Positions 4,299 through 45,223 of a DNA stretch of 64,000 bases are shown here, piece by piece. The translations under genes were made by a program, and so were the position numbers. The first letter of the stretch is position 1, and every line of letters starts with the position of its first letter. Below the pieces are notes generated by a model that did no database searches, was not told the DNA's origin, and saw nothing but the letters and a program-made list of their open reading frames with translations. Location: NCBI GenBank assembly GCA_964616425.1, contig CAZTQY010000003.1:47402-111401 (forward strand), read 5' to 3'. The stretch comes from an uncultured Candidatus Saccharibacteria bacterium. GTDB taxonomy: Bacteria > Patescibacteriota > Minisyncoccia > Phycocordibacterales > DATDWN01.

Positions 4299-5309
4299 AT
4301 GACACTAATTGGAAAACCATCACCAACGGATATGAATTTGCATCCTCTAAATTATAAGTGGGCATATGATTTGTATAACCAAGCTGTTCGAAACACTTGG
4401 TTCCCTCATGAAATAGCACTCAAAGAGGACTTGGAAGATTTTGAGAAAATGACTGAGGATGAGAGACACGCAATCAAGTTTCTTATGGCTTTTTTCAACC
4501 CTGCAGAGCTCATAGTTAACAGATCCATTGCTCTCGGTATATATCCATATTTGAAATCTCCAGAGTGTCACCTATATCTAGCAAAGCAAATGTGGGAAGA
4601 GGCGAACCACTGTGTGTCTTTTGAATATGTTCTAGAAACATTCCCGTTTGATAAAGAGTCTATATTTAACACTCACCTCGAAGTGGCTTCTATGACAGCA
4701 AAGGAGGCTTTCATAAACAGATATCTAACTCGAATGACTGAAGATAAGCTCGATATTGAAACAGTGGATGGTAAGAAAGATTTTATTAGAAACCTAGTTG
4801 CGACAAACATTGTGATGGAGGGTATATGGTTCTACTCAGGCTTTATGGTGGCTCTTTCTTTCCGACAGAGAAACCAACTCAGAAACTTTGGTTCTATGAT
4901 CAACTGGGTTTTGCGAGACGAAAGTTTGCACCTAAAGTTCGGTATTAACTTGGTTCACAATGTGTTGGAGGAAAATACAGAACTACTTACGGAAGAGTTT
5001 GCAGCAGAAATCAGAAACATAATCATCGAAGGAGTTGATCTAGAAGTTGCATACAACAAAGACTTGTTCCCGAACGGTATTTTGGGACTTAATGCTGACT
5101 ATGTAAACCAGTATGTTCAGTATGTGGCGGACAGAAGACTTCAGGAACTTGGAATGCCAAAATACTATAATGTGACTAATCCAGCAAAATGGATGAGTAC
5201 AGCAACAGATGTGTTTGAGTTGGTAAACTTTTTTGAATCACAAAACACAAGTTACGAGGTAGACTCTCACGCAGGGGAATCAAAAAAGAAAGATTCTGCT
5301 TCTGAGTAG
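4299..5309 (+). CDS. nrdB: Ribonucleotide reductase beta subunit (ferritin-like diiron)
   Basis: EEANHCVSFEYVLETF diiron ligand region, directly downstream of nrdA. Confidence 0.9.
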   Translation: MTLIGKPSPTDMNLHPLNYKWAYDLYNQAVRNTWFPHEIALKEDLEDFEKMTEDERHAIKFLMAFFNPAELIVNRSIALGIYPYLKSPECHLYLAKQMWEEANHCVSFEYVLETFPFDKESIFNTHLEVASMTAKEAFINRYLTRMTEDKLDIETVDGKKDFIRNLVATNIVMEGIWFYSGFMVALSFRQRNQLRNFGSMINWVLRDESLHLKFGINLVHNVLEENTELLTEEFAAEIRNIIIEGVDLEVAYNKDLFPNGILGLNADYVNQYVQYVADRRLQELGMPKYYNVTNPAKWMSTATDVFELVNFFESQNTSYEVDSHAGESKKKDSASE

Positions 5310-7112: not shown

Positions 7113-7230
7113 ATTCCAAATTTGGCGAACTCCTCGTTCCCAAATTAAAAATATTCGTCACCTTAGCACTAACTAAGGCTCCTCATCTTTTTAATTTCTC
7201 ACGTCGGATTTCATCCAAATTGTGAAATTT
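7113..7230. mobile_element. MITE-like repeat, family alpha copy 1, with terminal inverted repeats and an internal conserved hairpin
   Basis: Starts immediately after the gap stop. TIRs ttccaaatttggcgaa / ttcatccaaattgtgaa. About 90% identical to 39165-39325. Confidence 0.45.
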
Positions 7231-7290
7231 TGATTTTGGAGTTGTTGAATACTTTATATCTATATACCACAGATTTAGTATAATTAAATT

Positions 7291-9393: not shown

Positions 9394-9464
9394 TGCGAAC
9401 TTCGAACTTCACACAGTTTTGAAAGTTTTAAGTTTTCAATCCGAATTGTGTTAAAATAATTTAA

Positions 9465-20333: not shown

Positions 20334-20409
20334 GCCACCTTAGCTCAGTTGGTAGAGCACTCGTTTTGTAAACGAGAGCGGGTCAGTTCGAGCCTGACAG
20401 GTGGCTCCA
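20334..20409 (+). tRNA. tRNA-Thr (anticodon UGU) with encoded CCA
   Basis: Cloverleaf folded by hand: acceptor GCCACCT/AGGTGGC, D-arm GCTC..GAGC, anticodon loop TTTGTAA, T-arm GTCAG-TTCGAGC-CTGAC. Confidence 0.9.
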
Positions 20410-21794: not shown

Positions 21795-23042
21795 TTACCT
21801 CCAGGTTGTGTTTATTTTAAAGAGGGCATTGAAGGCCGCTCGTATTATCCAGATAGGTGCAATAAACATATACAAAGATAGGTAATAAATCAAATCCATA
21901 CCCAAATCGAGTTTACCTTCTGACATTCTTTTGGAAATAACAATAAACGTAATAGTTCCGATAGCTGTAGCAAATCCCAACAAAGTAAGTATCTGAGTAT
22001 TCAAATAAAATAAATCAAAATGGATACTTGGCCAGCTCAAGTTCCATCCAACAGTGCTAACAACTTTATATTGGTTGAAAATAGCTCTGATAAAACTCAA
22101 GACAGAAACACTAGAAACAAATACTACAGAAACAATAGATATGGCTGCCATAGGTAAAACAAGCATTCCTACATTTCCGTATTTTCTTTTGAAAAACATA
22201 TAGCGATAGTCCTTTGCGTTTTGAATAAAGCCATGAGACCAACGAACTCTTTGCTTTAGGAGTTTTCGAACAGTGTTTGGTGGAACAGTATAAACAAATG
22301 CATTGTGGGCATGAACTATTTTAAATCCATTTTCCTGCATTCTGAGGGCGATCTCTATGTCCTCAGTGTTGTGTGCATGCCTGTATGGTCCAAGTTTGTC
22401 GAATACGTCTCGTCTAAAAATAGAGAATGGTCCAGGTGTTATATATATAGCGTTCATGTATTGGAACATCTTCCTTGTGAATATTCCAAAGCCATACTCT
22501 ATTTTCTGGAGTAGTTGGAGTATGGATTTTGGTTCCCAAAGTTTAATAGATGGAGCCACCGCCATAGTCTCCTTGTCCTGGAAGTAATATACGATTTTCT
22601 TTAGTGTATCTTTGTGAACATATGAGTCAGCGTCTAGACAACCAACTAGTTCAGTACTAAGTTTTGATAATCCATAATTTAGTGCAGTATATTTACCTCC
22701 ATTTTTCTTTGTGTGGAGTTCAATCTGAGGGTGGTTTTTAAATTTTTGTACAACTTCCCATGTGTTGTCTGTGGAACCATCATCCACTATCATTATTTTC
22801 AGTTTATCCTTTGGGTAGTCCAAGTTGAGTATAGAGTGTATAGTTTTTCCAACTGTTCTCTCTTCATTCCAGCAAGGTACGATAACAGTTACTGTCGGGT
22901 ATTTTTTGACTCCTTGCGCGACAAGCGCCTCCTCAGCCTCGATATTTTTTTTATTTGCAAAGTATGTAATAAGCAAAAAAACTTCAAAATTTAATGAAAT
23001 AAAGAGAAATACATATGTAATTGAGTTTGTTAGGTTGTACAT
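21795..23042 (-). CDS. Family 2 glycosyltransferase, processive type (QxxRW)
   Basis: VPCWNEE, DDGSTD, QRVRW motifs and C-terminal TM helices. Confidence 0.85.
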   Translation of the reverse strand: MYNLTNSITYVFLFISLNFEVFLLITYFANKKNIEAEEALVAQGVKKYPTVTVIVPCWNEERTVGKTIHSILNLDYPKDKLKIMIVDDGSTDNTWEVVQKFKNHPQIELHTKKNGGKYTALNYGLSKLSTELVGCLDADSYVHKDTLKKIVYYFQDKETMAVAPSIKLWEPKSILQLLQKIEYGFGIFTRKMFQYMNAIYITPGPFSIFRRDVFDKLGPYRHAHNTEDIEIALRMQENGFKIVHAHNAFVYTVPPNTVRKLLKQRVRWSHGFIQNAKDYRYMFFKRKYGNVGMLVLPMAAISIVSVVFVSSVSVLSFIRAIFNQYKVVSTVGWNLSWPSIHFDLFYLNTQILTLLGFATAIGTITFIVISKRMSEGKLDLGMDLIYYLSLYMFIAPIWIIRAAFNALFKINTTWR

Positions 23043-24226
23043 TAGCGTATTGTGGCTTGGTATGCAGATTTCGTTACTTCTTCAAGCTTTTTGTGTAAAA
23101 AGTCTACATCTTCAGAGGTTAAGGTTCTATTAAGAGATCTGTATGTTACTCGGTACGCATAGCTTACTTTTCCTTCACCAAACTTTGCAGCATTTTCATA
23201 TTTATCTAGTAGCTCTACCTGCTCAACAAGTCCAGGAGCATTTTCTCGAACTAGGTCGAAATAGTCGTTAGGTAGAAAGTCATTTGTTACAACAAAAGAA
23301 ATATCTCTTACTACAGGAGGGAACTTTGAAACCTCTACGAACTTTTGTCCAAGTTTCAGCTGTTTTGTCACTCTCTCGTCGTCAGACCATAGCAGTCGGA
23401 TATCTGGTAGTTCCATAGATATGATAGCTAGTCTCTCCAATCCAAACCCGAATGCCCAACCATTGTAGACGTTAGAGTCCACTCCAAGTTTCTCTAGAAC
23501 ACTACCCTGAACAACACCTGCACCGAGTACCTCTACCCACTGCCCGTCTTTGTCCACTTCCATCTCTAGGCTGTCGTGCGTATAAGGGAATGTATCTGGA
23601 TTAAATCTATATTTTATTTCTTTGCCGAACACAGACTGTGCAACTTCGATCAAAACATCTTTGAGGTCGTCTTGATTTATTTCCTTCTCAGACTTTTTGC
23701 AGAGGTATAGTCCATCTACCTGGTGGAAGATGTTCATGTGTCTTCGATCGATCTCATCCTTTCGGTAAACTTTTCCGTGACAGATAACGGCCATGTCGAG
23801 ACCCTTTGCCATTTTTTCTTTTATTTCAGGTCTGTTGAAGTAGTACCACCACATAACTGTTGTATGTGTTCGGAGAATATAGTCTTGGTTTACATAGTAT
23901 GTGTCTGACTTGCTTCGAGCAGGGTGACTAGCAGGGAAGTCAAAGAGGTCAAAAGTCTGAACCATAGGTACTATCTCTGGGATAGTTATGACATCGAACT
24001 TTTTGAAAGTGTCGAGTGCCTTTACTCGGTCTGCTATTTCTTTGATAGGGCTACCGTCTTTTCGAGAAAGGTCATCCATTGCTAAATAGCGCTTTATTCG
24101 AGCGCTCTCTGCATCTGTTCTCTCCTCAAGCTCTTTGCGTAGAGTTTGGTCGTTACTGTCTACTTCAATGTACTCTTTTCGATCGAGTTCTGGAGAGGAG
24201 TAGAGGTCCTTCATACTGTTTGACAT
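23042..24226 (-). CDS. pheS: Phenylalanyl-tRNA synthetase alpha subunit
   Basis: Class II motifs 2 and 3 (..FHQVDG.., GFGLERLAII). Confidence 0.85.
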   Translation of the reverse strand: MSNSMKDLYSSPELDRKEYIEVDSNDQTLRKELEERTDAESARIKRYLAMDDLSRKDGSPIKEIADRVKALDTFKKFDVITIPEIVPMVQTFDLFDFPASHPARSKSDTYYVNQDYILRTHTTVMWWYYFNRPEIKEKMAKGLDMAVICHGKVYRKDEIDRRHMNIFHQVDGLYLCKKSEKEINQDDLKDVLIEVAQSVFGKEIKYRFNPDTFPYTHDSLEMEVDKDGQWVEVLGAGVVQGSVLEKLGVDSNVYNGWAFGFGLERLAIISMELPDIRLLWSDDERVTKQLKLGQKFVEVSKFPPVVRDISFVVTNDFLPNDYFDLVRENAPGLVEQVELLDKYENAAKFGEGKVSYAYRVTYRSLNRTLTSEDVDFLHKKLEEVTKSAYQATIR

Positions 24227-24276
24227 ATGTCGAAACTATAGCGAAAAATAGGCGTTTTGTAAAATTTTTGTAATCA

Positions 24277-24415
24277 AAACAAAACTTTTTTCAGACCGCT
24301 CGCTTTTCCAGCGAAAAGCTTGCTTTGTCCTCGGTCGCAACTTGTCAATGAGCCGAGCAAAGCTCGGACTTTGACAGGACCATGCTTGCGACCTGTGGGG
24401 TCATCAAAAAGTTTT
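24277..24415. ncRNA. Candidate structured RNA element gamma, copy A (strand undetermined)
   Basis: Shares cttttccagcgaaaag, tgtcctc, ttgtcaatgagc and ttgaca.ag.ccatgct with 44630-44750. Two helices covary: ggtcgcaa/ttgcgacc and cgagc/gctcg. Confidence 0.4.
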
Positions 24416-24435
24416 GTTTTGAGTAAAATTTAGTA

Positions 24436-24490
24436 AACAAAAAACCCCGCACAGAACCGGGCGCGAACTGCGCGGGGTTCTGTGTGGGTG
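24436..24490 (-). terminator. Strong bidirectional GC hairpin terminator for cassette D gene
   Basis: cacagaacc..ggttctgtgcgggg plus T6 on the minus strand. Confidence 0.55.
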
Positions 24491-24503
24491 GGGATTGATG
24501 AGA

Positions 24504-24896
24504 TTACAGAATGATGGCTGTGACTTTCTCACTTCCACCAACCATCTCAACAACTTCTTCAACTGGGTTGCGTCTGGTGTGGGCGGTCTTGGGTATCGGC
24601 TTGACCTCGAAGGTCTTGCCGTGCTTTTCGACAAGTTCCGCCAACCATACCTCCCAGTTGTCTGGGTTGACCTGTGAAGCATCGATATTCGCGAGTTGAG
24701 GGAACTGTGAAAGAAGAAATGGCTTACACTCGTCCATCACTCGGGGGACTTGGTGAGTGAACACCACATCTCCAGTCATGTAGTTCAGGATGTCGTAGTA
24801 AGCTTCCACGCCCCGTGGAGCAACCAAATAACCAGTTGTGACAGTCAGGATATCGCCCAGATGGAAACTTTTCATCGTTTTCGCCTCGTGGAACAT
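24504..24896 (-). CDS. High-GC cassette D: hypothetical protein (phage-like flavour)
   Basis: Clean 130-aa ORF, GC about 52%, with its own terminator. Confidence 0.5.
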   Translation of the reverse strand: MFHEAKTMKSFHLGDILTVTTGYLVAPRGVEAYYDILNYMTGDVVFTHQVPRVMDECKPFLLSQFPQLANIDASQVNPDNWEVWLAELVEKHGKTFEVKPIPKTAHTRRNPVEEVVEMVGGSEKVTAIIL

Positions 24897-25044
24897 GGGG
24901 CATAAATGCCCAAAATCAACTGCGCGAATTATGGCATATTTATTACCTATTTGTCAATATATAATTTACCCCAAAATTCATCACTTTTTCCTTGTGATGA
25001 CATCCAAATTTTGCTATAATTACTCGCATAACAAATCACAAAAT

Positions 25045-27102
25045 ATGGCTAAAAAAGACTCTTACGGTGCAGATGCGATACAGATTCTCGAAGGACTAGA
25101 ACCAGTTAGAAAGCGACCGGGAATGTACATTGGTACAACAGGACTCGACGGACTACATCACCTTATTTGGGAAATTTTTGACAACTCTCGTGACGAAGCC
25201 ATGGGTGGTTTCGCAAACGACATCGAGGTGACACTCCTACCTGGAAACAGAATCCGAGTTACAGACAACGGAAGAGGTATCCCTGTTGATATTCACAAAC
25301 AAACAAAAGTTTCAGCACTTGAAACTATCATGACAACTCTCCATGCTGGAGGAAAGTTCGGTGCAGAGGACGGAGGTTACAAAGTCTCTGGAGGTTTGCA
25401 CGGAGTAGGTGCGTCTGTGGTAAACGCTCTATCTATCTACTGTAAAGTAACTGTTCACAAGGAGGGCAACGGTATCTACGTGCAGGAATATTCTCAAGGA
25501 AAGAGAAAAGCTCTTGTAAAGAAAGTTGGATCAACAAAGAAAAACGGAACTATAGTTTTGTTCGAACCAGATCCAGCTATTTTCCCAATCATTGAGTTTG
25601 ATGCAAAAAGAGTTGTCGATCATTTGAGACAGCAGGCCTATCTAGTAAAAGGTCTACGTATCACAGTTAACGACGCTTCAAAATACGAAGGTAAAATAAA
25701 AGAAGACGAAGTTTTCAAAATTGGGGAGCTTGGACTCGAGATCCCATCAATGTCTTTTTACTTTGAGGGAGGACTGCTTTCTCTAGTAAAGTTCGTAAAT
25801 ACAACTTTCAAACCTGTTCACAAAAATGTTTTCTATGTTGAGAAAAAAACAAATGAATGGGAGTCAGTGGAAGTATCACTACAGTATGTTGATGATATTT
25901 CTTCTCGTATTCTTGGTTTCGCAAACAACATTCACACACCAGAAGGTGGAACACACGTTACTGGTTTTAAAACTGCTCTAACTCGTGCACTGAACTCATA
26001 CGGACGAAAGAACAACCTTATCAAAGAAAACGATGACAACTTTACTGGAGAGGATGTTCTCGAGGGTCTAACGGCGGTTGTTTCTGTAAAACTACGAGAG
26101 ATACAGTTCGAAGGTCAGACAAAAGCAAAACTTGGAACAGTGGAGGCTCAGTCTTCTGTTAACACTATTTTCTCAGAAGCATTTGCAGAATTTCTAGAAG
26201 AAAATCCGGATGATGCAAAGGCAATCATCAACAAAGTTATCCTGGCTCTAAAAGCACGAAAGGCAGCAAAGGCCGCAAAGGATTCTGTTCTACGAAAAGG
26301 TGCGCTAGAAGGAATGACACTTCCTGGAAAGCTTGCCGACTGTCAGTCAAAGTCAGCAGAGGACTCAGAACTGTTTATTGTGGAGGGAGATTCTGCGGGA
26401 GGTACAGCTAAAACAGGCCGTGATCGAAAGACACAAGCGATACTTCCACTACGAGGAAAGATCCTTAACATCGAGAGAGCTAGACTCGACCGAATGTTAG
26501 AGTCAGAGCAGATACGAAACCTCGTTATCGCACTAGGAACAGCGATAGGAGATACATTTGATATATCAAAACTGCGATATCACAAGATAATCATCGCAAC
26601 AGATGCGGACGTGGACGGTGCTCACATTCGAACTCTTATTTTGACTTTGCTATATAGATTTTTCCGACCACTTATCGATGGAGGTTTTATTTACATCGCT
26701 CAACCACCTCTATATAAAATAAAGAAAGGTAGAGAAATATTTTATGCATATTCAGATGACGAGAAAGCAAAAGTAGTTGGAAAGGAAGAAGTTGCAGAGA
26801 TAGAAGAAATAACAGAGGTAGAACCAGAAGCAGATGGTGTGGAAGAGGAAGCAGAGGAAGACACAAAATCTAAATCCAAGAAGTCTAAAATCTCAATTCA
26901 ACGATACAAAGGTCTCGGAGAAATGAATGCAGAAGAACTATGGGAAACAACAATGGATCCCGCTAGACGAGTTCTAAAACAAGTAACTATTGGCGACACA
27001 GTTGGCGCAGACAAAGTGTTTGATGTGCTCATGGGTTCAGACGTTCCATCTCGAAAGTCATTTATACAGTCGAACGCAACAAAGGCAAATTTGGATATAT
27101 AA
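25045..27102 (+). CDS. gyrB: DNA gyrase subunit B (type IIA topoisomerase ATPase subunit)
   Basis: MAKKDSYGADAIQILEGLEPVRKRPGMYIGTT..; GHKL, Toprim (EGDSAGG) and C-terminal domains. Confidence 0.9.
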   Translation: MAKKDSYGADAIQILEGLEPVRKRPGMYIGTTGLDGLHHLIWEIFDNSRDEAMGGFANDIEVTLLPGNRIRVTDNGRGIPVDIHKQTKVSALETIMTTLHAGGKFGAEDGGYKVSGGLHGVGASVVNALSIYCKVTVHKEGNGIYVQEYSQGKRKALVKKVGSTKKNGTIVLFEPDPAIFPIIEFDAKRVVDHLRQQAYLVKGLRITVNDASKYEGKIKEDEVFKIGELGLEIPSMSFYFEGGLLSLVKFVNTTFKPVHKNVFYVEKKTNEWESVEVSLQYVDDISSRILGFANNIHTPEGGTHVTGFKTALTRALNSYGRKNNLIKENDDNFTGEDVLEGLTAVVSVKLREIQFEGQTKAKLGTVEAQSSVNTIFSEAFAEFLEENPDDAKAIINKVILALKARKAAKAAKDSVLRKGALEGMTLPGKLADCQSKSAEDSELFIVEGDSAGGTAKTGRDRKTQAILPLRGKILNIERARLDRMLESEQIRNLVIALGTAIGDTFDISKLRYHKIIIATDADVDGAHIRTLILTLLYRFFRPLIDGGFIYIAQPPLYKIKKGREIFYAYSDDEKAKVVGKEEVAEIEEITEVEPEADGVEEEAEEDTKSKSKKSKISIQRYKGLGEMNAEELWETTMDPARRVLKQVTIGDTVGADKVFDVLMGSDVPSRKSFIQSNATKANLDI

Positions 27103-27103
27103 C

Positions 27104-27134
27104 AAAAAACCTCCCGTTTGGGAGGTTTTTTGTT
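27104..27134. terminator. Bidirectional terminator between gyrB and the pspC-domain gene
   Basis: cctcccgtttgggagg followed by tttttt. Confidence 0.65.
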
Positions 27135-27381
27135 ATATAGTTTCTGTTTTCTTTTCTTCGGTATGATGATGTTTTTGTGTTTGGTGAAATATTGATGGAT
27201 GCTTTGGAATAATCACCGTGGCTACTATGTAACCGAGAATTGCTGGGACAACACCTGTTAGTATTGCTAATACTATGAAAACAAGTCTAAGCACAGTTGG
27301 GTCAATATCCACATACTCACCGATACCCCCGATAACTCCTGCTAGTATTTTGTCCGTGTCACTTTTATATAGTTTTCTCAT
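27133..27381 (-). CDS. PspC-domain membrane protein
   Basis: ILAGVIGGIGEYVDIDPTVLRLVFIVL motif. Confidence 0.8.
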   Translation of the reverse strand: MRKLYKSDTDKILAGVIGGIGEYVDIDPTVLRLVFIVLAILTGVVPAILGYIVATVIIPKHPSIFHQTQKHHHTEEKKTETI

Positions 27382-34543: not shown

Positions 34544-35434
34544 ATGGCAAACAGGCACCTTTCTAGATCAATAGTTTTACAATCCCTTTTTGAATGGGAT
34601 TTCTCCAACAAGTCTATAGATGAGGCTACAACAATTTTTGTGCGTAATGCTAAGGAATTTGCTCCCGGTATGGGGGATTTTTCTTTTATGGAAACTCTTC
34701 TAAATGGAATTTTGGAAAAGAGAAAAGACATAGATTTGATTATTGAAAAAGCTGCGCCAGATTGGCCAATAGATAAGATAAGTATAATGGATAGAAATAT
34801 ACTTCGACTTGGTTTATATGAGTTACTTTTTTCTGATAGATCTCAGGTCCCACCAAAGGTTGCTATAAACGAAGCTATAGAACTTTCAAAAGCTTTTGGT
34901 GGTGAGACATCTAGTAAGTTTGTTAATGGAGTTTTGGGTGCAGTGTATAAAGAACTGGGCGAGCCGGGAAAAGAAGAGACATCAAAAGATAAAAATAAAA
35001 ATGGTAATGGTGTGGTAAATACTGAACATTTGGGCGGAGCTGTTGTTTTTGCTAAAGATGGAGAAGATATATATCTTGCACTTGTTCATGATGTTTTTGG
35101 AAGATGGACTCTTTCAAAGGGGAAAATTCCTCCTGATGTGGATATAGAAGTTGGAACAATACAGGGGATAAAAGACGAGATGGGTCTGGATGTAACTCTT
35201 AAAGAGAAGCTTGGTGAGAATGAGTATATTGCATATCATCCAGAAAAAGGTAAAACAAAAAAGCATGTTGTTTATTATTTAGCTGAGTCAGCATATACAG
35301 ATATAGTCCCAGAAAAGAAAGGTGGTCTCGATGATGCTAGGTGGTTCAAACTCGCCGAAATTCTCGATCTAAATTTCTATAACGATATACTTCCTCTAGT
35401 TACTAAAGCAATAAATATCTTACTCAAGAAGTAA
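34544..35434 (+). CDS. nusB: NusB antitermination factor fused to a C-terminal Nudix-like domain
   Basis: N-terminal NusB fold (LFEWDF.., LRLGLYELLF); about 150 C-terminal residues with a Nudix-like GKI..E..RE..EE.G-like pattern. Confidence 0.7.
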   Translation: MANRHLSRSIVLQSLFEWDFSNKSIDEATTIFVRNAKEFAPGMGDFSFMETLLNGILEKRKDIDLIIEKAAPDWPIDKISIMDRNILRLGLYELLFSDRSQVPPKVAINEAIELSKAFGGETSSKFVNGVLGAVYKELGEPGKEETSKDKNKNGNGVVNTEHLGGAVVFAKDGEDIYLALVHDVFGRWTLSKGKIPPDVDIEVGTIQGIKDEMGLDVTLKEKLGENEYIAYHPEKGKTKKHVVYYLAESAYTDIVPEKKGGLDDARWFKLAEILDLNFYNDILPLVTKAINILLKK

Positions 35435-35476
35435 ATTGTGTGAAGGAGTCTCTACCTTCTCATTTAATTTTACTCA

Positions 35477-35788
35477 ACACGCATAAATCGTTGCTACGAT
35501 TTTGCTTTTCTCGGCTCGTCAGCCTGCGAAGGTCTCGTAAAATGAAATGAGTCAACGAGACTCTTAGGTGACACATTCTTGTTTTTGTGTTAGTGTATTC
35601 TCAATTATTATTAAATGTAAGATTAGTGTTTTTTGAGACTTCGCAGATAATTTAGAAAACAACGACGAAGATAAAGTAAGCCCGAAGCTTGTTTGAGCAA
35701 AGCGAGTTTGCGAAAGGGCTACATATCTAGGAGATTGTTTTCTTAGATTATTGAGATAAGCGAAATCGTACCAACGATTTACGCGGTT
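35477..35788. mobile_element. MITE-like non-coding element (about 312 bp) with 36-bp imperfect terminal inverted repeats in the nusB-rnc spacer
   Basis: Left TIR acacgcataaatcgttgctacgattttgcttttctc matches the reverse complement of the right TIR gagataagcgaaatcgtaccaacgatttacgcggtt at 30/36. No ORF inside. The mismatches are not RNA-compensatory. Confidence 0.45.
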
Positions 35789-35810
35789 TCAAAAGACACT
35801 AATCTGAAAT

Positions 35811-36512
35811 GTGTATATGAATCCGGATTTAAAAACATTCCAGGAGAAAATAGATATCAATTTCAAAGACGCTGGGTTACTTACTCAGGCTTTTGTGCAT
35901 CGCTCATATATAAATGAAAACAAAGCATCAGGTCTTTCTCACAACGAGCGACTTGAGTTTTTAGGTGACGCAGTTTTGGAATTAGTTATAACTGACTTTT
36001 TATACAAAGAATACGAAAATAAAGCAGAGGGTGAGTTAACCGCATATAGATCAGCTTTAGTTAATGCGGATACTTGTGCCAATATAGCGACAACTCTTGG
36101 TATAAATGATCACCTACTACTTTCAAAAGGTGAGAGCAAAGATACTGGAAGAGCGAGACAATACATACTAGCAAACGCACTAGAAGCTCTTATTGGTGCT
36201 ATTTATCTTGACCAAGGATATGATTCTGCAAAAGTTTTTATTGAGAAAAATTTTACTCCACTAATACACAAAATTATTTCTGACGGTGCATTTATCGACA
36301 GTAAGAGTTTGTTTCAAGAGAAATCACAAGAGTTTGAAGGTGTTACTCCATCATATAAAACCGTAAAAGAGTCTGGACCAGACCATGAAAAGAAATTTAC
36401 TGTGGGCGTTTATGTTGGAAAGGATTTGATTGCTACTGGAGAAGGTAAGTCAAAGCAGGACGCAGAACAGATAGCTGCTAGAGAGGCTTTGGCAAAGAAA
36501 GGTTGGAATTAG
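35811..36512 (+). CDS. rnc: Ribonuclease III
   Basis: ERLEFLGDAVLEL signature and a C-terminal dsRBD. Confidence 0.9.
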   Translation: MYMNPDLKTFQEKIDINFKDAGLLTQAFVHRSYINENKASGLSHNERLEFLGDAVLELVITDFLYKEYENKAEGELTAYRSALVNADTCANIATTLGINDHLLLSKGESKDTGRARQYILANALEALIGAIYLDQGYDSAKVFIEKNFTPLIHKIISDGAFIDSKSLFQEKSQEFEGVTPSYKTVKESGPDHEKKFTVGVYVGKDLIATGEGKSKQDAEQIAAREALAKKGWN

Positions 36513-39164: not shown

Positions 39165-39325
39165 ACTTCCAAATTTGGCGAATACCACAAGAGTACTTCT
39201 TGTTTTATAAACAAAACAAAGTCGCTCCTCGTTCCCAAATTAAAAATATTCGTCACCTTACAGGTGTAAGGCTCCTCATCTTTTTAATTTCTCACGTCGG
39301 ATTTCATTCAAATTATGAAAGTTTG
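39165..39325. mobile_element. MITE-like repeat, family alpha copy 2 (with about a 40-bp internal insertion relative to copy 1)
   Basis: Starts directly after the smc stop. Same TIRs and the same tcgtcacctta..taaggctcctcatctttttaatttctcacgtcggatttcat core as 7113-7230. Confidence 0.45.
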
Positions 39326-39395: not shown

Positions 39396-39446
39396 AAGTG
39401 GTTAGCCAAAAGCCCCTGAAAATCAAGGGTTTTTGGCTAACCACTT
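39396..39446 (+). promoter_or_regulatory. Leader hairpin with 20-bp perfect stem between promoter and cassette H gene; candidate attenuator or regulatory structure
   Basis: aagtggttagccaaaagccc ctgaaaatcaa gggtttttggctaaccactt. Confidence 0.4.
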
Positions 39447-39510
39447 CTGGAAAGCCCCTTAACTCGCGGGTAGCGAGAAACTTCTCGGCAATTAGCCGAA
39501 AAGGAGAAGT

Positions 39511-40044
39511 ATGATCAAGAACAGCGAACTCAACTTGGGTCAGATCGAGGCGATCGTCAACAAGCTTGGTGGGATGAGTGGTGTTGACCGTTTCCTCGCT
39601 GGTGAGTTGGTTGTCGTCCCGGCATATTCTGCCGTTGTGGACTACAGCCAGTCACTTGTTGAGATGGTCTCTGCAGGGAAGTACGACTGGGTGAGCGAGG
39701 GTATCACTGAGAAGAACTTCCCTAAAACCATGTCGGGCAAAGTTCGGGTCAATTTCGAACTTGTCCACTTCAATCGGAACATCACGTCGGACATCGCAGT
39801 GATGGGGCTCGGTGGGATGGGATTACGCCCTGCGACCATCTGGGAACTTCTAGCATTCGGGGCTAAGTACCCCGAACTTCAGAGAGAGTTTCCTGTCGTC
39901 GCCCTAGGATCGGTCGCCAAGATTGAGGATTCTCGTCATGTTGTCGGTTTCTTCATGATTGTTTCCAAGCGGAGTGTTGATCACCTCTGCACGTGGGGTC
40001 ATGATTGGACACGTAACGTGCGTTTCCTCGCCGTTCGCAAGTAA
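39511..40044 (+). CDS. High-GC cassette H gene 1: hypothetical 177-aa protein
   Basis: SD aaggag, GC about 55%, followed by a terminator. Confidence 0.5.
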   Translation: MIKNSELNLGQIEAIVNKLGGMSGVDRFLAGELVVVPAYSAVVDYSQSLVEMVSAGKYDWVSEGITEKNFPKTMSGKVRVNFELVHFNRNITSDIAVMGLGGMGLRPATIWELLAFGAKYPELQREFPVVALGSVAKIEDSRHVVGFFMIVSKRSVDHLCTWGHDWTRNVRFLAVRK

Positions 40045-40135: not shown

Positions 40136-40280
40136 TATAAATTAAAGTAGTGTTATTCCAAGACTCTCGACAATCGAGGTCTATAGTGATTGCTTCGAAC
40201 TTCACTCAGTTTATGAAAGTTTGAGAGGAATAATTTGACTTTTGTAAAAATTGTGTTAGATTCTTTGGTGGAGAAATTAT

Positions 40281-43965: not shown

Positions 43966-44619
43966 ATGAATTTTCATATCATAAGTCTTTTTCCTAACGC
44001 ATTCGACTCATATCTAAATGAGTCTATTATTTCTCGTGCAATAGAGGATAAGAAAATTAAAGTCAGTTTTTATAACCCTCGTGATTATTCTGATGATAAA
44101 TGGAAAAGGGTTGATCAGAAACCATATGCTGGTGGCCCAGGTATGGTTATTCAGGCTCTGCCTGTCATCAAAGCAATACAGAAAGCTTTGATGAAGTTAA
44201 AAGTTAAAAGTAAAAAGTCGAAAGTAAAGATTATTTTTTTCTCTCCTGGTGGGAAGGAGTTTAATACAGACTATGCAAAAAAATCTGCAAAAAAATACAC
44301 TGATATTATTTTTGTTTGCGGGAGATATGAAGGTATTGATGCTCGAGTAAAAAAAGTTTTTAAAATGGAAGATGTATCTATTGGAAATTATGTTTTAACT
44401 GGTGGCGAGTTGCCAGCTATGGTGTTGATCGATTCTATTTCTCGACAGGTTGAAGGAGTGCTCGGTAACTTTAACTCTCTAGAGGAGTCGCGTGTTTCTA
44501 GTCACGACTCATACACAAGGCCAGAAGTTTTTGAATATAAAAAGAAAAAATACAGAGTGCCAAAGGTTTTGCTTTCAGGAAATCATAAAGAGATTGAGGA
44601 GTGGAAAAGAACTAGATAG
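43966..44619 (+). CDS. trmD: tRNA (guanine37-N1)-methyltransferase
   Basis: SPOUT knot motifs: ISLFPN, GGPGMV, YEGIDARV, NYVLTGGELPAMVLIDS. Confidence 0.9.
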   Translation: MNFHIISLFPNAFDSYLNESIISRAIEDKKIKVSFYNPRDYSDDKWKRVDQKPYAGGPGMVIQALPVIKAIQKALMKLKVKSKKSKVKIIFFSPGGKEFNTDYAKKSAKKYTDIIFVCGRYEGIDARVKKVFKMEDVSIGNYVLTGGELPAMVLIDSISRQVEGVLGNFNSLEESRVSSHDSYTRPEVFEYKKKKYRVPKVLLSGNHKEIEEWKRTR

Positions 44620-44629
44620 AATTTTTTAG

Positions 44630-44750
44630 AGACAAAAACTTTTCCAGCGAAAAGTTTTTTCTGTCCTCAGCCTTGATTTGTCAATGAGCTCTGATTACAG
44701 AGTCGTTGACAAAGCCATGCTCAAGGCTTGCGGATGCTCTAAAAAACGTC
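44630..44750. ncRNA. Candidate structured RNA element gamma, copy B
   Basis: Shares the conserved blocks of copy A. The long-range helix covaries (agccttga/tcaaggct), as does the internal hairpin (ctctg/cagag). Confidence 0.4.
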
Positions 44751-44848
44751 TATCTAGTTCTTTGTGTTTTGGGTAACAAAAAACACCACTCCGACCCAAG
44801 GGGGAAAATTTCTCCCACCTTGTGTCGACGCGGCGTCGTGTGTACTGG

Positions 44849-45223
44849 CTAGACTGCGGCGAGCTGCTGTCCGTGAGCTGTCTGCGGATGCTCGCTCCGG
44901 TTCTCGTTGAAGAGCTCTTCGTACCGGCGGTGCATTTCCGCCTGCTCCTCGAACACGGCGATGAAGGCCGCCAAGGCCTTGGACTGATTCGCCTTGTGTT
45001 CTTCGCTCGATTCCATGTGTGAGCGAACGACGCCGGACTTGAGCATGTCGTTGATGGTCGTGGGTCCCTTGTCGCGCTTGACGATCTTGATGATCTTCAC
45101 CCCGCTCAGGACGGCCGCTGCCATCATGAGTTCTTCCTCGTAGGCCATGCAGGGATGTTCCTGCAACAGGCACTGAACCGACTTACCTTTCAACTTCTCG
45201 TACGTGCCGATCGTTTCCGACAT
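44849..45223 (-). CDS. High-GC cassette J: hypothetical 124-aa protein
   Basis: SD ggagg at 8 nt on the minus strand, GC about 58%. Confidence 0.5.
   Translation of the reverse strand: MSETIGTYEKLKGKSVQCLLQEHPCMAYEEELMMAAAVLSGVKIIKIVKRDKGPTTINDMLKSGVVRSHMESSEEHKANQSKALAAFIAVFEEQAEMHRRYEELFNENRSEHPQTAHGQQLAAV

Follow-up and report, generated by a model that had tools for sequence, protein, structure and literature searches.

The question raised by this locus is what kind of element recurs, with its helices rewritten, at two separate places in the window (the whole 64 kb stretch of DNA that was analysed). The original prediction described two copies, A and B, of a conserved element of roughly 120 nt with compensatory base changes, taken as a candidate novel structured RNA and possibly as part of the high-GC gene cassettes beside it. 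The sequence blocks on which it drew are all present in both copies, in identical order and on the same strand; a 16-mer (CTTTTCCAGCGAAAAG) and a 12-mer (TTGTCAATGAGC) each occur exactly twice in the window, once per copy, again in identical order and on the same strand. Both helices said to swap sequence while keeping complementarity do so: the long-range helix is ggtcgcaa/ttgcgacc in copy A and agccttga/tcaaggct in copy B, and the internal hairpin is cgagc/gctcg and ctctg/cagag, respectively. An outer helix that had escaped description compensates in the same way (AAAACUUUUU/AAAAAGUUUU in A, UUUAGAG/CUCUAAA in B). The elements are thus real, although the extents first given to them (24277–24415 and 44630–44750) were too short, since they did not take in the closing stems in full. 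The full elements, their neighbours and two more members of the family, both in the spacer 35434–35811, are as follows:

24275–24421, + strand: copy A, a full type-1 element with closing stem included (sequence, fold, covariance model). Closing stem caaaacaaaacttttt (24275–24290) pairs with aaaaagttttgttttg (24406–24421); inner pairing of gacc (24294–24297) with ggtc (24398–24401); P2 hairpin 24302–24319; junction tgtcctc 24326–24332; P3 24333–24340 with 24386–24393; P4 ttgtcaa (24342–24348) with ttgaca (24371–24376); P5 24353–24367; bulge ggaccatgc 24377–24385; tgtgg 24394–24398.
44609–44760, + strand: copy B, a full type-1 element with closing stems included (sequence, fold, covariance model, empty-site comparison). 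Outer closing stem gaactagatag (44609–44619, the last trmD codons and stop) pairs with ctatctagttc (44750–44760); second stem ttttttagag (44622–44631) with ctctaaaaaa (44737–44746); P2 44634–44659; tgtcctc 44662–44668; P3 44669–44676 with 44721–44728; P4 44678–44684 with 44706–44712; P5 44689–44702; bulge agccatgc 44713–44720; tgcgg 44729–44733.
35443–35565, + strand: 'mini' member (covariance model R1 25 bits, E 5e-4; model R2 33 bits, E 9e-6; fold z = −4.5).
About 35619–35805, − strand: 'type-2' member, assigned by eye (fold z = −6.2; alignment with a variant in locus L004).
23042–24226, − strand: pheS, divergent from copy A (Pfam tRNA-synt_2d and FDX-ACB).
24504–24896, − strand: DUF7736 high-GC cassette gene beside copy A (Pfam E 6e-22), with a terminator at about 24440–24490.
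43966–44619, + strand: trmD (Pfam PF01746 on homologues; exact 217-aa match P0001).
44849–45223, − strand: high-GC cassette gene beside copy B, 124 aa, with no Pfam family and a terminator at about 44775–44835.

When compared with shuffled sequences, copies A and B gave fold-energy z-scores of −5.8 and −6.6, respectively, and none of the 200 shuffles equalled them. The antisense strands scored −4.5 and −4.9, giving the sense strand a slight advantage in folding. R1, a covariance model that was built from relatives, recognized copy A with 136.7 bits (E 3e-33) and copy B with 140.2 bits, the E-values of both being of the order of 1e-33. Copy A is antisense to both of its neighbours, pheS and the DUF7736 gene, while copy B covers the last 11 nt of trmD, whose stop and last codons form the 5′ arm of its closing stem. 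The two copies have different surroundings, pheS and the DUF7736 cassette for A and trmD and a different cassette for B, and the similarity stops at the element. Because the flanks are unrelated, the copies are not a segmental duplication, a concern attached to the original prediction.

The mini copy has the closing stem, internal loop, P2 and junction of the type-1 elements, with the long arm replaced by a 4-bp hairpin (GGCT-cgtc-AGCC). It lies 3′ of a NusB-like gene, a position at which a syntenic relative (L012) has a full type-1 copy, and a related mini copy is found in L003 (1345–1433). The type-2 copy converges on the mini copy. Its scaffold is that of the family (P1, GAAACCGC, P2 GUAAAUCGUUGGUACGAUUUCGC, UUAUCUC ... 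CUGCGAAGUCUC), and its arm is a different one (AAUCUAAGAAAA...UUUUCUAAAUU) shared with L004 3823–3952. Neither R1 nor R2, a scaffold-only covariance model for the wider superfamily, returned the type-2 copy as a single full-length match: R1 gave two weak partial matches (13 and 10 bits, E 0.7 and 3) and R2, which recovered only A, B and the mini copy, gave none. Convergent pairs of this kind (+ then −, 40–80 nt apart in one spacer) occur in the window (35443–35565/35619–35805) and also in L025 (1690–1830 (+)/1907–2035 (−)) and L105 (7591–7731/7808–7936).

Copies A and B belong to a large family, apparently not described before, whose members are interspersed intergenic elements of 150–230 nt that form hairpins. 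The search for homologues with a covariance model, suggested along with the original prediction, was carried out, and the family now comprises no fewer than 66 distinct copies, from genomes and metagenomes of Patescibacteria (Paceibacteria/Parcubacteria). When one genome per GTDB species was scanned with an exact pattern, 51 loci were found, 34 of which have the features of the family and come without exception from Patescibacteria (labelled Paceibacterota, Minisyncoccia, Zambryskibacteria, Parcubacteria group or 'Saccharibacteria'); one short contig among the exact-pattern matches was binned as Nitrospira. The remaining 17 are chance matches within genes of other phyla. R1 found additional, more diverged copies within the same GTDB loci, including a seventh in a metagenome-assembled genome that already had six pattern matches, the most in any one genome, and a scan of metagenomes provided 44 further matches. 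Homologues reached E-values as low as 1e-35. The TrmD proteins of the window and of Parcubacteria bacterium C7867-006 share 89% identity.

The family does not correspond to a catalogued RNA. It is absent from Rfam: the Rfam 15 models at gathering threshold gave no match on elements in the window and 16 loci, and at E ≤ 10 no relevant match on copy A, the 35400–35830 pair or a canonical copy from L032. An ARAGORN scan for tRNA and tmRNA returned only a tRNA-Thr (20334–20409), so the elements are neither. No copies were present in viral contigs (searched with two patterns), a plasmid collection or a phage collection, and we found no description of such an element in the literature; TIGR arrays and Patescibacteria group I introns, which turned up in that search, are unrelated to it. 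With at least 66 distinct homologues elsewhere and unrelated flanks at A and B, the probability of chance similarity, or of a simple duplication of one cassette region, is practically negligible, and nothing speaks for either beyond the fact that the window shows only two full copies.

Every copy shares an architecture consisting of a long, copy-specific closing stem, a three-way junction, a P2 hairpin with the loop C-N-G-C and a modular arm. The long arm of copies A and B is made up of P3, P4 and P5 with a bulge of 7–9 nt, and the invariant type-1 arm reads UUGUCAA-UGAGC ... GUCG-UUGACAA-ACCAUGCU. P4 (UUGUCAA/UUGACAA) is invariant or nearly so, and the mostly invariant unpaired positions are the P2 loop CCnGCG, UGUCCUC, UGAGC, GUCG, ACCAnGCU and UGyGG, giving some 45 unpaired or P4 nucleotides that are deeply conserved, across orders. 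The closing stem has a median of 30 Watson–Crick pairs (range 13–53) and a different sequence in every copy. Many copies have a canonical periphery, which is AAAAUCUC-UUUCUCAC... at the 5′ end and ...CUCRAC-GAGAUUUU, often followed by GCUAGUGGU, at the 3′ end. Conserved terminal inverted repeats were not found among the copies, only some of which share AAAATCTC/GAGATTTT.

Covariation in this fold is strong. In the alignment of the 66 distinct copies, standard pairs occupy 95.3% of cells and 20 of the 30 core pairs have changed on both sides; these double changes amount to 379 cells, whereas one-sided changes are limited to 0–2 sequences per pair, except for 12 at pair 61–215. None of 500 shuffles reached any of the pairing or covariation measures, and when the 3′ partner was slid by one to three columns as a control, pairing dropped to 37–52%. 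The compensatory changes first noticed between two copies are therefore genuine changes in a structured element. Some copies contain long, perfectly palindromic insertions in P5 (L042 5961–6166, arm of 126 nt; L033 5313–5476, 84 nt; about 60 nt is usual), which identifies P5 as an expansion site. At the pheS locus, a broken B-type copy (L002 4865–5004, − strand) has an insertion of about 42 nt (GGGCATAAGGATTACCTCATGCATAAGTGTTCCCTTACTTCC) in place of the 3′ strand of P3. Two coding or regulatory interpretations of the conserved sequence were rejected. A small ORF from the conserved ATGAGC would differ in frame and length between A and B, P5 does not have a length divisible by 3 and no ATG is present in the mini copies; a promoter on the invariant TTGACA of P4 would have no −10 hexamer at 16–18 nt on either strand.

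We also analysed the position of the elements relative to genes. Of 69 distinct copies, 40 have a 5′ neighbouring gene in their own orientation, 22 have one in the opposite orientation and seven have none. Upstream genes, named by reading their translations, are housekeeping genes such as scpA, prfA, ftsZ, dnaK, recA, rpoD, rpmB, rpsI, RNase J, ybeY, gyrA, dnaE, fba and trmD. Measured from the end of the stop codon, the first base of the closing stem lies at −16 to +22 nt (median +4) in 33 sense copies, nine of which overlap the coding end, and copies take up whole intergenic spacers. Co-directional gene pairs contain 27 sense and 17 antisense copies; the latter score as high as the former with the covariance model, and no consistent promoter lies upstream of them. 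The same gene carries an element in distant genomes in three instances: recA (L011, L032), rpsI (L021, L028) and dnaE (L039, L042). Likewise, the mini copy of the window and the full copy of L012 are orthologous. This looks like long-term vertical retention, and therefore function, and implies that some sites are old or else are preferred targets. By cumulative GC skew, three of the four members in the window lie on the leading (+) strand, while the ratio across loci is 24:15 and is confounded by gene orientation. The stop codons upstream of the 33 sense copies are TAA in 24 cases, TAG in nine and TGA in none, with an ORF caller that counts TGA as a stop; this may reflect the codon usage or release-factor content of these lineages. 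In L038, an RNase P RNA (RF00010, 105.7 bits; 4540–4879, + strand) lies 60 nt from an element on the opposite strand (4340–4480).

Comparison of close relatives revealed considerable turnover. The site after trmD holds a B-type core in the window and in L056, another type-1 subtype between the same flanks in L054 and L055, and no element in L052, L058, L059 and L060, all in genomes whose TrmD proteins are 83–93% identical. The pheS locus is A-type in the window and L043 and B-type in L046 and L002, with flanking genes that are 79–90% identical at the nucleotide level. Near-identical B-type cores are found at three different loci, namely trmD (window), pheS (L046) and scpA (L050). These patterns of site and subtype point to insertion and loss, or to gene conversion between copies, and cannot be explained by divergence in place. 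The only candidate for a target duplication is an imperfect direct repeat of 7–8 nt (TAGATAG/TAGATAA), seen in L056 only.

The closing stems at trmD suggest how the arms arise. The 3′ arm in the window, CTATCTAGTTC, matches the reverse complement of GAACTAGATAG, the final codons and stop of trmD, at 11 of 11 bases; that of the different subtype in L054, TTATTTACTTTTT, is likewise complementary to AAAAAGTAAATAA, encoding KSK*, at 13 of 13 bases. The C-terminus of TrmD is KRTR* in the window as opposed to KLKSK* in most relatives. From these matches we infer that the 3′ arm was probably templated from the flank at the DNA level, for example by template switching in a hairpin, a mechanism known for quasipalindrome correction. 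Stems extended by long AT-rich stretches are not peculiar to the element but common in this genome, as illustrated by a typical bidirectional terminator (27096–27139), with a 20-bp stem (TATATAACAAAAAACCTCCC-GTTT-GGGAGGTTTTTTGTTATATA) in which the A tract pairs with the T tract together with AT-rich flanks.

Whether the pairing is maintained in RNA or in DNA can be approached through the mismatches. True RNA families tolerate G.U far more than A.C. Here, the 1980 cells of the core include 29 G.U, of which 12 fall at one site, and 24 A.C, and the closing stems have 29 G.U against 68 A.C, although the scarcity of wobble pairs could be due in part to the AT-rich context and to alignment to the covariance model. 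As G.U is about as frequent as A.C and one-sided changes are rare, the pairing is strictly Watson–Crick and equal on both strands. Orientation is only weakly biased and antisense copies are intact, and all of this speaks more for a constraint acting on DNA, or on both strands, than for a function of the sense RNA only. The invariant unpaired nucleotides, in turn, demand a sequence-specific reader. The original prediction took the covariation as the hallmark of selection on RNA (or DNA cruciform) structure. Selection on structure is upheld; as a sign of RNA specifically, the covariation is weakened by the strict Watson–Crick pairing, which the hairpin or cruciform alternative in DNA fits at least as well.

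Our preferred reading, to which we assign a probability of roughly 45%, is that of a palindromic repeat, mobile or convertible, which is maintained in DNA and co-transcribed at the 3′ ends of mRNAs. Such an element would behave as a non-autonomous mobile or gene-converting palindromic repeat, with arms kept complementary in DNA by intrastrand templating in a hairpin or cruciform and a stem that could extend into the end of the flanking gene. The conserved unpaired core would be the recognition surface for a putative protein. The element would be tolerated, and possibly useful, at gene 3′ ends, where co-transcription would produce a very stable terminal mRNA structure that could protect the 3′ end, act in a terminator-like manner or serve as an RNase III site. 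Several observations run against this reading: conserved terminal inverted repeats are absent, a candidate target duplication occurs in one lineage only, and the recurrence of the element at the same genes in distant genomes looks like retention for a function. Moreover, judged from the alignment, the deep conservation of the ~45-nt core exceeds that of typical selfish repeats.

It is also possible, although we lean against it, that the family is a cis-acting or processed structured RNA, a vertically inherited 3′-UTR or intercistronic module of housekeeping operons. Such an RNA could define, protect or terminate mRNA 3′ ends, be an RNase III site or a self-cleaving ribozyme, or serve as the precursor of a stable small RNA or ribonucleoprotein. 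Strong covariation combined with invariant junction and loop nucleotides is the usual signature of a functional RNA, and the tight link between element start and stop codon, the filling of intergenic spacers inside operons, the slightly better fold of the sense strand and the presence of the element at recA, rpsI, dnaE and nusB-like genes in distant genomes all agree with this. What tells against it is the lack of wobble tolerance (G.U being about as rare as A.C, or rarer), the 17 equally intact antisense copies among the 44 in co-directional gene pairs, which have no consistent promoter upstream, the empty sites and subtype swaps among close relatives, and the absence of any Rfam family, ribozymes included, at E ≤ 10. 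A family of independently transcribed, trans-acting small RNA genes, whose paralogues would have different helices, is quite unlikely. Several diverged copies per genome would suit it, as would a promoter-like TTGACA-N18-AAAAAT upstream of copy A and its orthologues, but conservation of that site at the pheS locus is confounded because it overlaps the pheS start region. Other orphan copies lack promoter-like sites, no terminator consistently follows the elements, and, with most copies starting 0–10 nt past the upstream stop, a promoter would not fit in.

The strictly Watson–Crick helices with conserved unpaired bases, and the weak effect of transcription direction, could also suit a single-stranded-DNA signal of the cell itself, such as a site for priming, for a replication-fork or recombination protein or for DNA uptake and processing, which would be read once replication or transformation exposes the strand. 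The leading-strand position of three of the four window members agrees with this idea, but we regard it as unlikely: the skew ratio across loci is confounded, presence and absence vary among close relatives, contrary to expectation for an essential chromosomal signal, and the TTGACA of P4 has no −10 partner on either strand.

The closest analogues of the element are REP/REPIN sequences, ERIC- and Correia-type repeats and integron attC sites, and most of the defining features that were checked for them proved to be absent. REPs and REPINs resemble it in being multi-copy, extragenic and hairpin-forming, often just downstream of genes and co-transcribed, in either orientation, with pairing kept in DNA and variation within a genome. 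However, REPs are simple palindromes of 20–40 nt (REPINs 60–110 nt) with a conserved GTAG or CGTC head, mobilized by RAYT transposases, whereas the element spans 150–230 nt and has a three-way junction, a conserved internal core, modular arms and copy-specific ends. A palindrome of 20–40 nt with a GTAG/CGTC head in inverted doublets is absent from it, and both architecture and consensus differ. The MITE-like ERIC, Correia (CREE), BOX and RUP repeats are likewise intergenic, 100–200 nt long and form long RNA hairpins when co-transcribed, with possible effects on mRNA stability or processing, and their presence differs between strains. In those families, terminal inverted repeats are conserved, target sites are duplicated (TA for Correia) and interiors diverge, while the element has variable termini, a conserved interior and covariation through several internal helices. 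Integron attC sites share with it folded single strands defined by structure, conserved unpaired bases, a position at gene 3′ ends and many diverged copies. Unlike attC, the element has a three-way junction rather than a single hairpin, no R″/L″/L′/R′ boxes and no ordered cassette array, its copies being scattered after housekeeping genes. The core sites R″ (RYYYAAC) and R′ (GTTRRRY) were sought, and the bases at the stem are copy-specific with no conserved AAC/GTT; no integrase was seen in ORFs beside elements or among the called genes of the trmD loci.

Among RNAs, orphan Rfam motifs (raiA, ROOL, GOLLD, OLE, twister, hatchet, pistol) are similar in their multi-helix covariation, invariant junction nucleotides and lack of a known biochemical role, and differ from the element, which lacks the tolerance of G.U expected of them, has only a weak bias in transcriptional orientation and is polymorphic in its insertion. 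The RNase III stems of phage T7 and of rRNA operons are comparable as long duplexes with an internal loop around a structured segment between cistrons, although these processing sites are about 50–60 nt or flank rRNAs. An intrinsic terminator was considered and rejected, as the terminator scan catches only the small P2 hairpin of copy A and not the whole element, and the closing stems are AT-rich, span at least 150 nt and have no regular U tract after them. Likenesses to the cores of hairpin and hammerhead ribozymes and to the CS-6 motif of plasmid ssoA found no support, with no match in Rfam.

The family could be a genuinely new kind of genetic element, a proposition that we consider doubtful and that takes one of two forms. 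At the DNA level, it would be a Paceibacteria-wide, self-propagating three-way-junction palindrome, read as folded single-stranded DNA by a dedicated putative enzyme, with a closing stem built by copying the end of the gene behind which it landed. At the RNA level, it would be a new functional class, for example a ribozyme or ribonucleoprotein scaffold, with the task of marking housekeeping mRNAs at their 3′ ends in bacteria whose genomes are minimal. Patescibacteria genomes are about 1 Mb in size with very little non-coding DNA, so it matters that about 600 nt of the 64 kb window is given to four copies of one elaborately folded element and that relatives carry several copies each. If it is a mobile palindromic repeat, it is an unrecognized driver of intergenic turnover in a huge uncultured radiation, able to rewrite the C-termini of genes, as the two forms of TrmD illustrate; as a functional RNA or DNA signal, it would be a motif without known counterpart that is widespread and deeply conserved. 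The family also offers a clean test of covariation alone as evidence for RNA, since covariation here is strand-symmetric.

The remaining aspect of the original prediction, that the element may be a component of the high-GC cassette unit, serving as an att-like or recombination site or as a 3′ UTR of the cassette, is highly improbable. It arose from the window, where both type-1 copies adjoin the 3′ end of a minus-strand cassette, and a nearby high-GC block is indeed always on the 3′ side of the element (eight versus none). That asymmetry is explained by the housekeeping gene against which the element lies at its 5′ end. Within 450 nt, high-GC blocks accompany only eight of the 66 copies, leaving 58 with none adjacent; conserved attC-type R/L boxes are absent from the base of the stem; copies A and B are both on the strand opposite the cassette gene; and none of the remaining high-GC cassettes of the window has a copy beside it. 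Nor are the two inherited together. The element sits between trmD and the cassette in the window, L056 and L054/L055. In L052 and L058, the trmD stop abuts the conserved terminator of the cassette (CAAAAAACACC...CCCAAGGGGG) with no element between, in L059 a different cassette and terminator follow trmD, again without an element, and L060 has neither; where a cassette occurs without the element, the trmD stop is immediately beside it or no more than about 65 nt away. L043, L046 and L002 all have an element by pheS with differing cassette content. The spacer from copy A to a 754-aa gene is hypervariable: it measures 0.46 kb with one DUF7736 gene in the window (24430–24950), and 1.7–3.1 kb with different content in these relatives (L043 3866–6951, L046 5158–6828, L002 3168–5039), between flanks that are 80–90% identical.

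The cassettes themselves show a pattern of exchange. At the trmD–pif1 locus, different high-GC cassette ORFs (~103–145 aa) are swapped between close relatives, while one conserved 3′ module of about 60 nt that includes the terminator (CAAAAAACACCACTCCGACCCAAGGGGGAAAT..TCTCCC.CCTTGTGTCGACGCGGCG) is found in the window (44775–44840) and downstream of trmD in L052, L054, L055, L056 and L058. From its sequence, this looks like a replaceable cassette with a constant end. An exact look-up of the DUF7736 cassette protein showed that it is not on record, and eight other small high-GC ORFs in the window have no Pfam family. Two further repeats were observed. One, of about 100 nt (CTCCTCGTTCCCAAATTAAAAATATTCGTCACCTTA ... 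TAAGGCTCCTCATCTTTTTAATTTCTCACGTCGGATTTCAT...) and unrelated to the element, occurs at 7130–7232 and 39225–39325 in copies that are 95–100% identical, each just downstream of a + strand gene, with the latter adjoining a high-GC block (39435–40042). The other is a direct repeat of 33 nt (CTTCGAACTTCACACAGTTT...), 79% identical between 9400–9432 and 40193–40225, where both copies are intergenic and near high-GC blocks.
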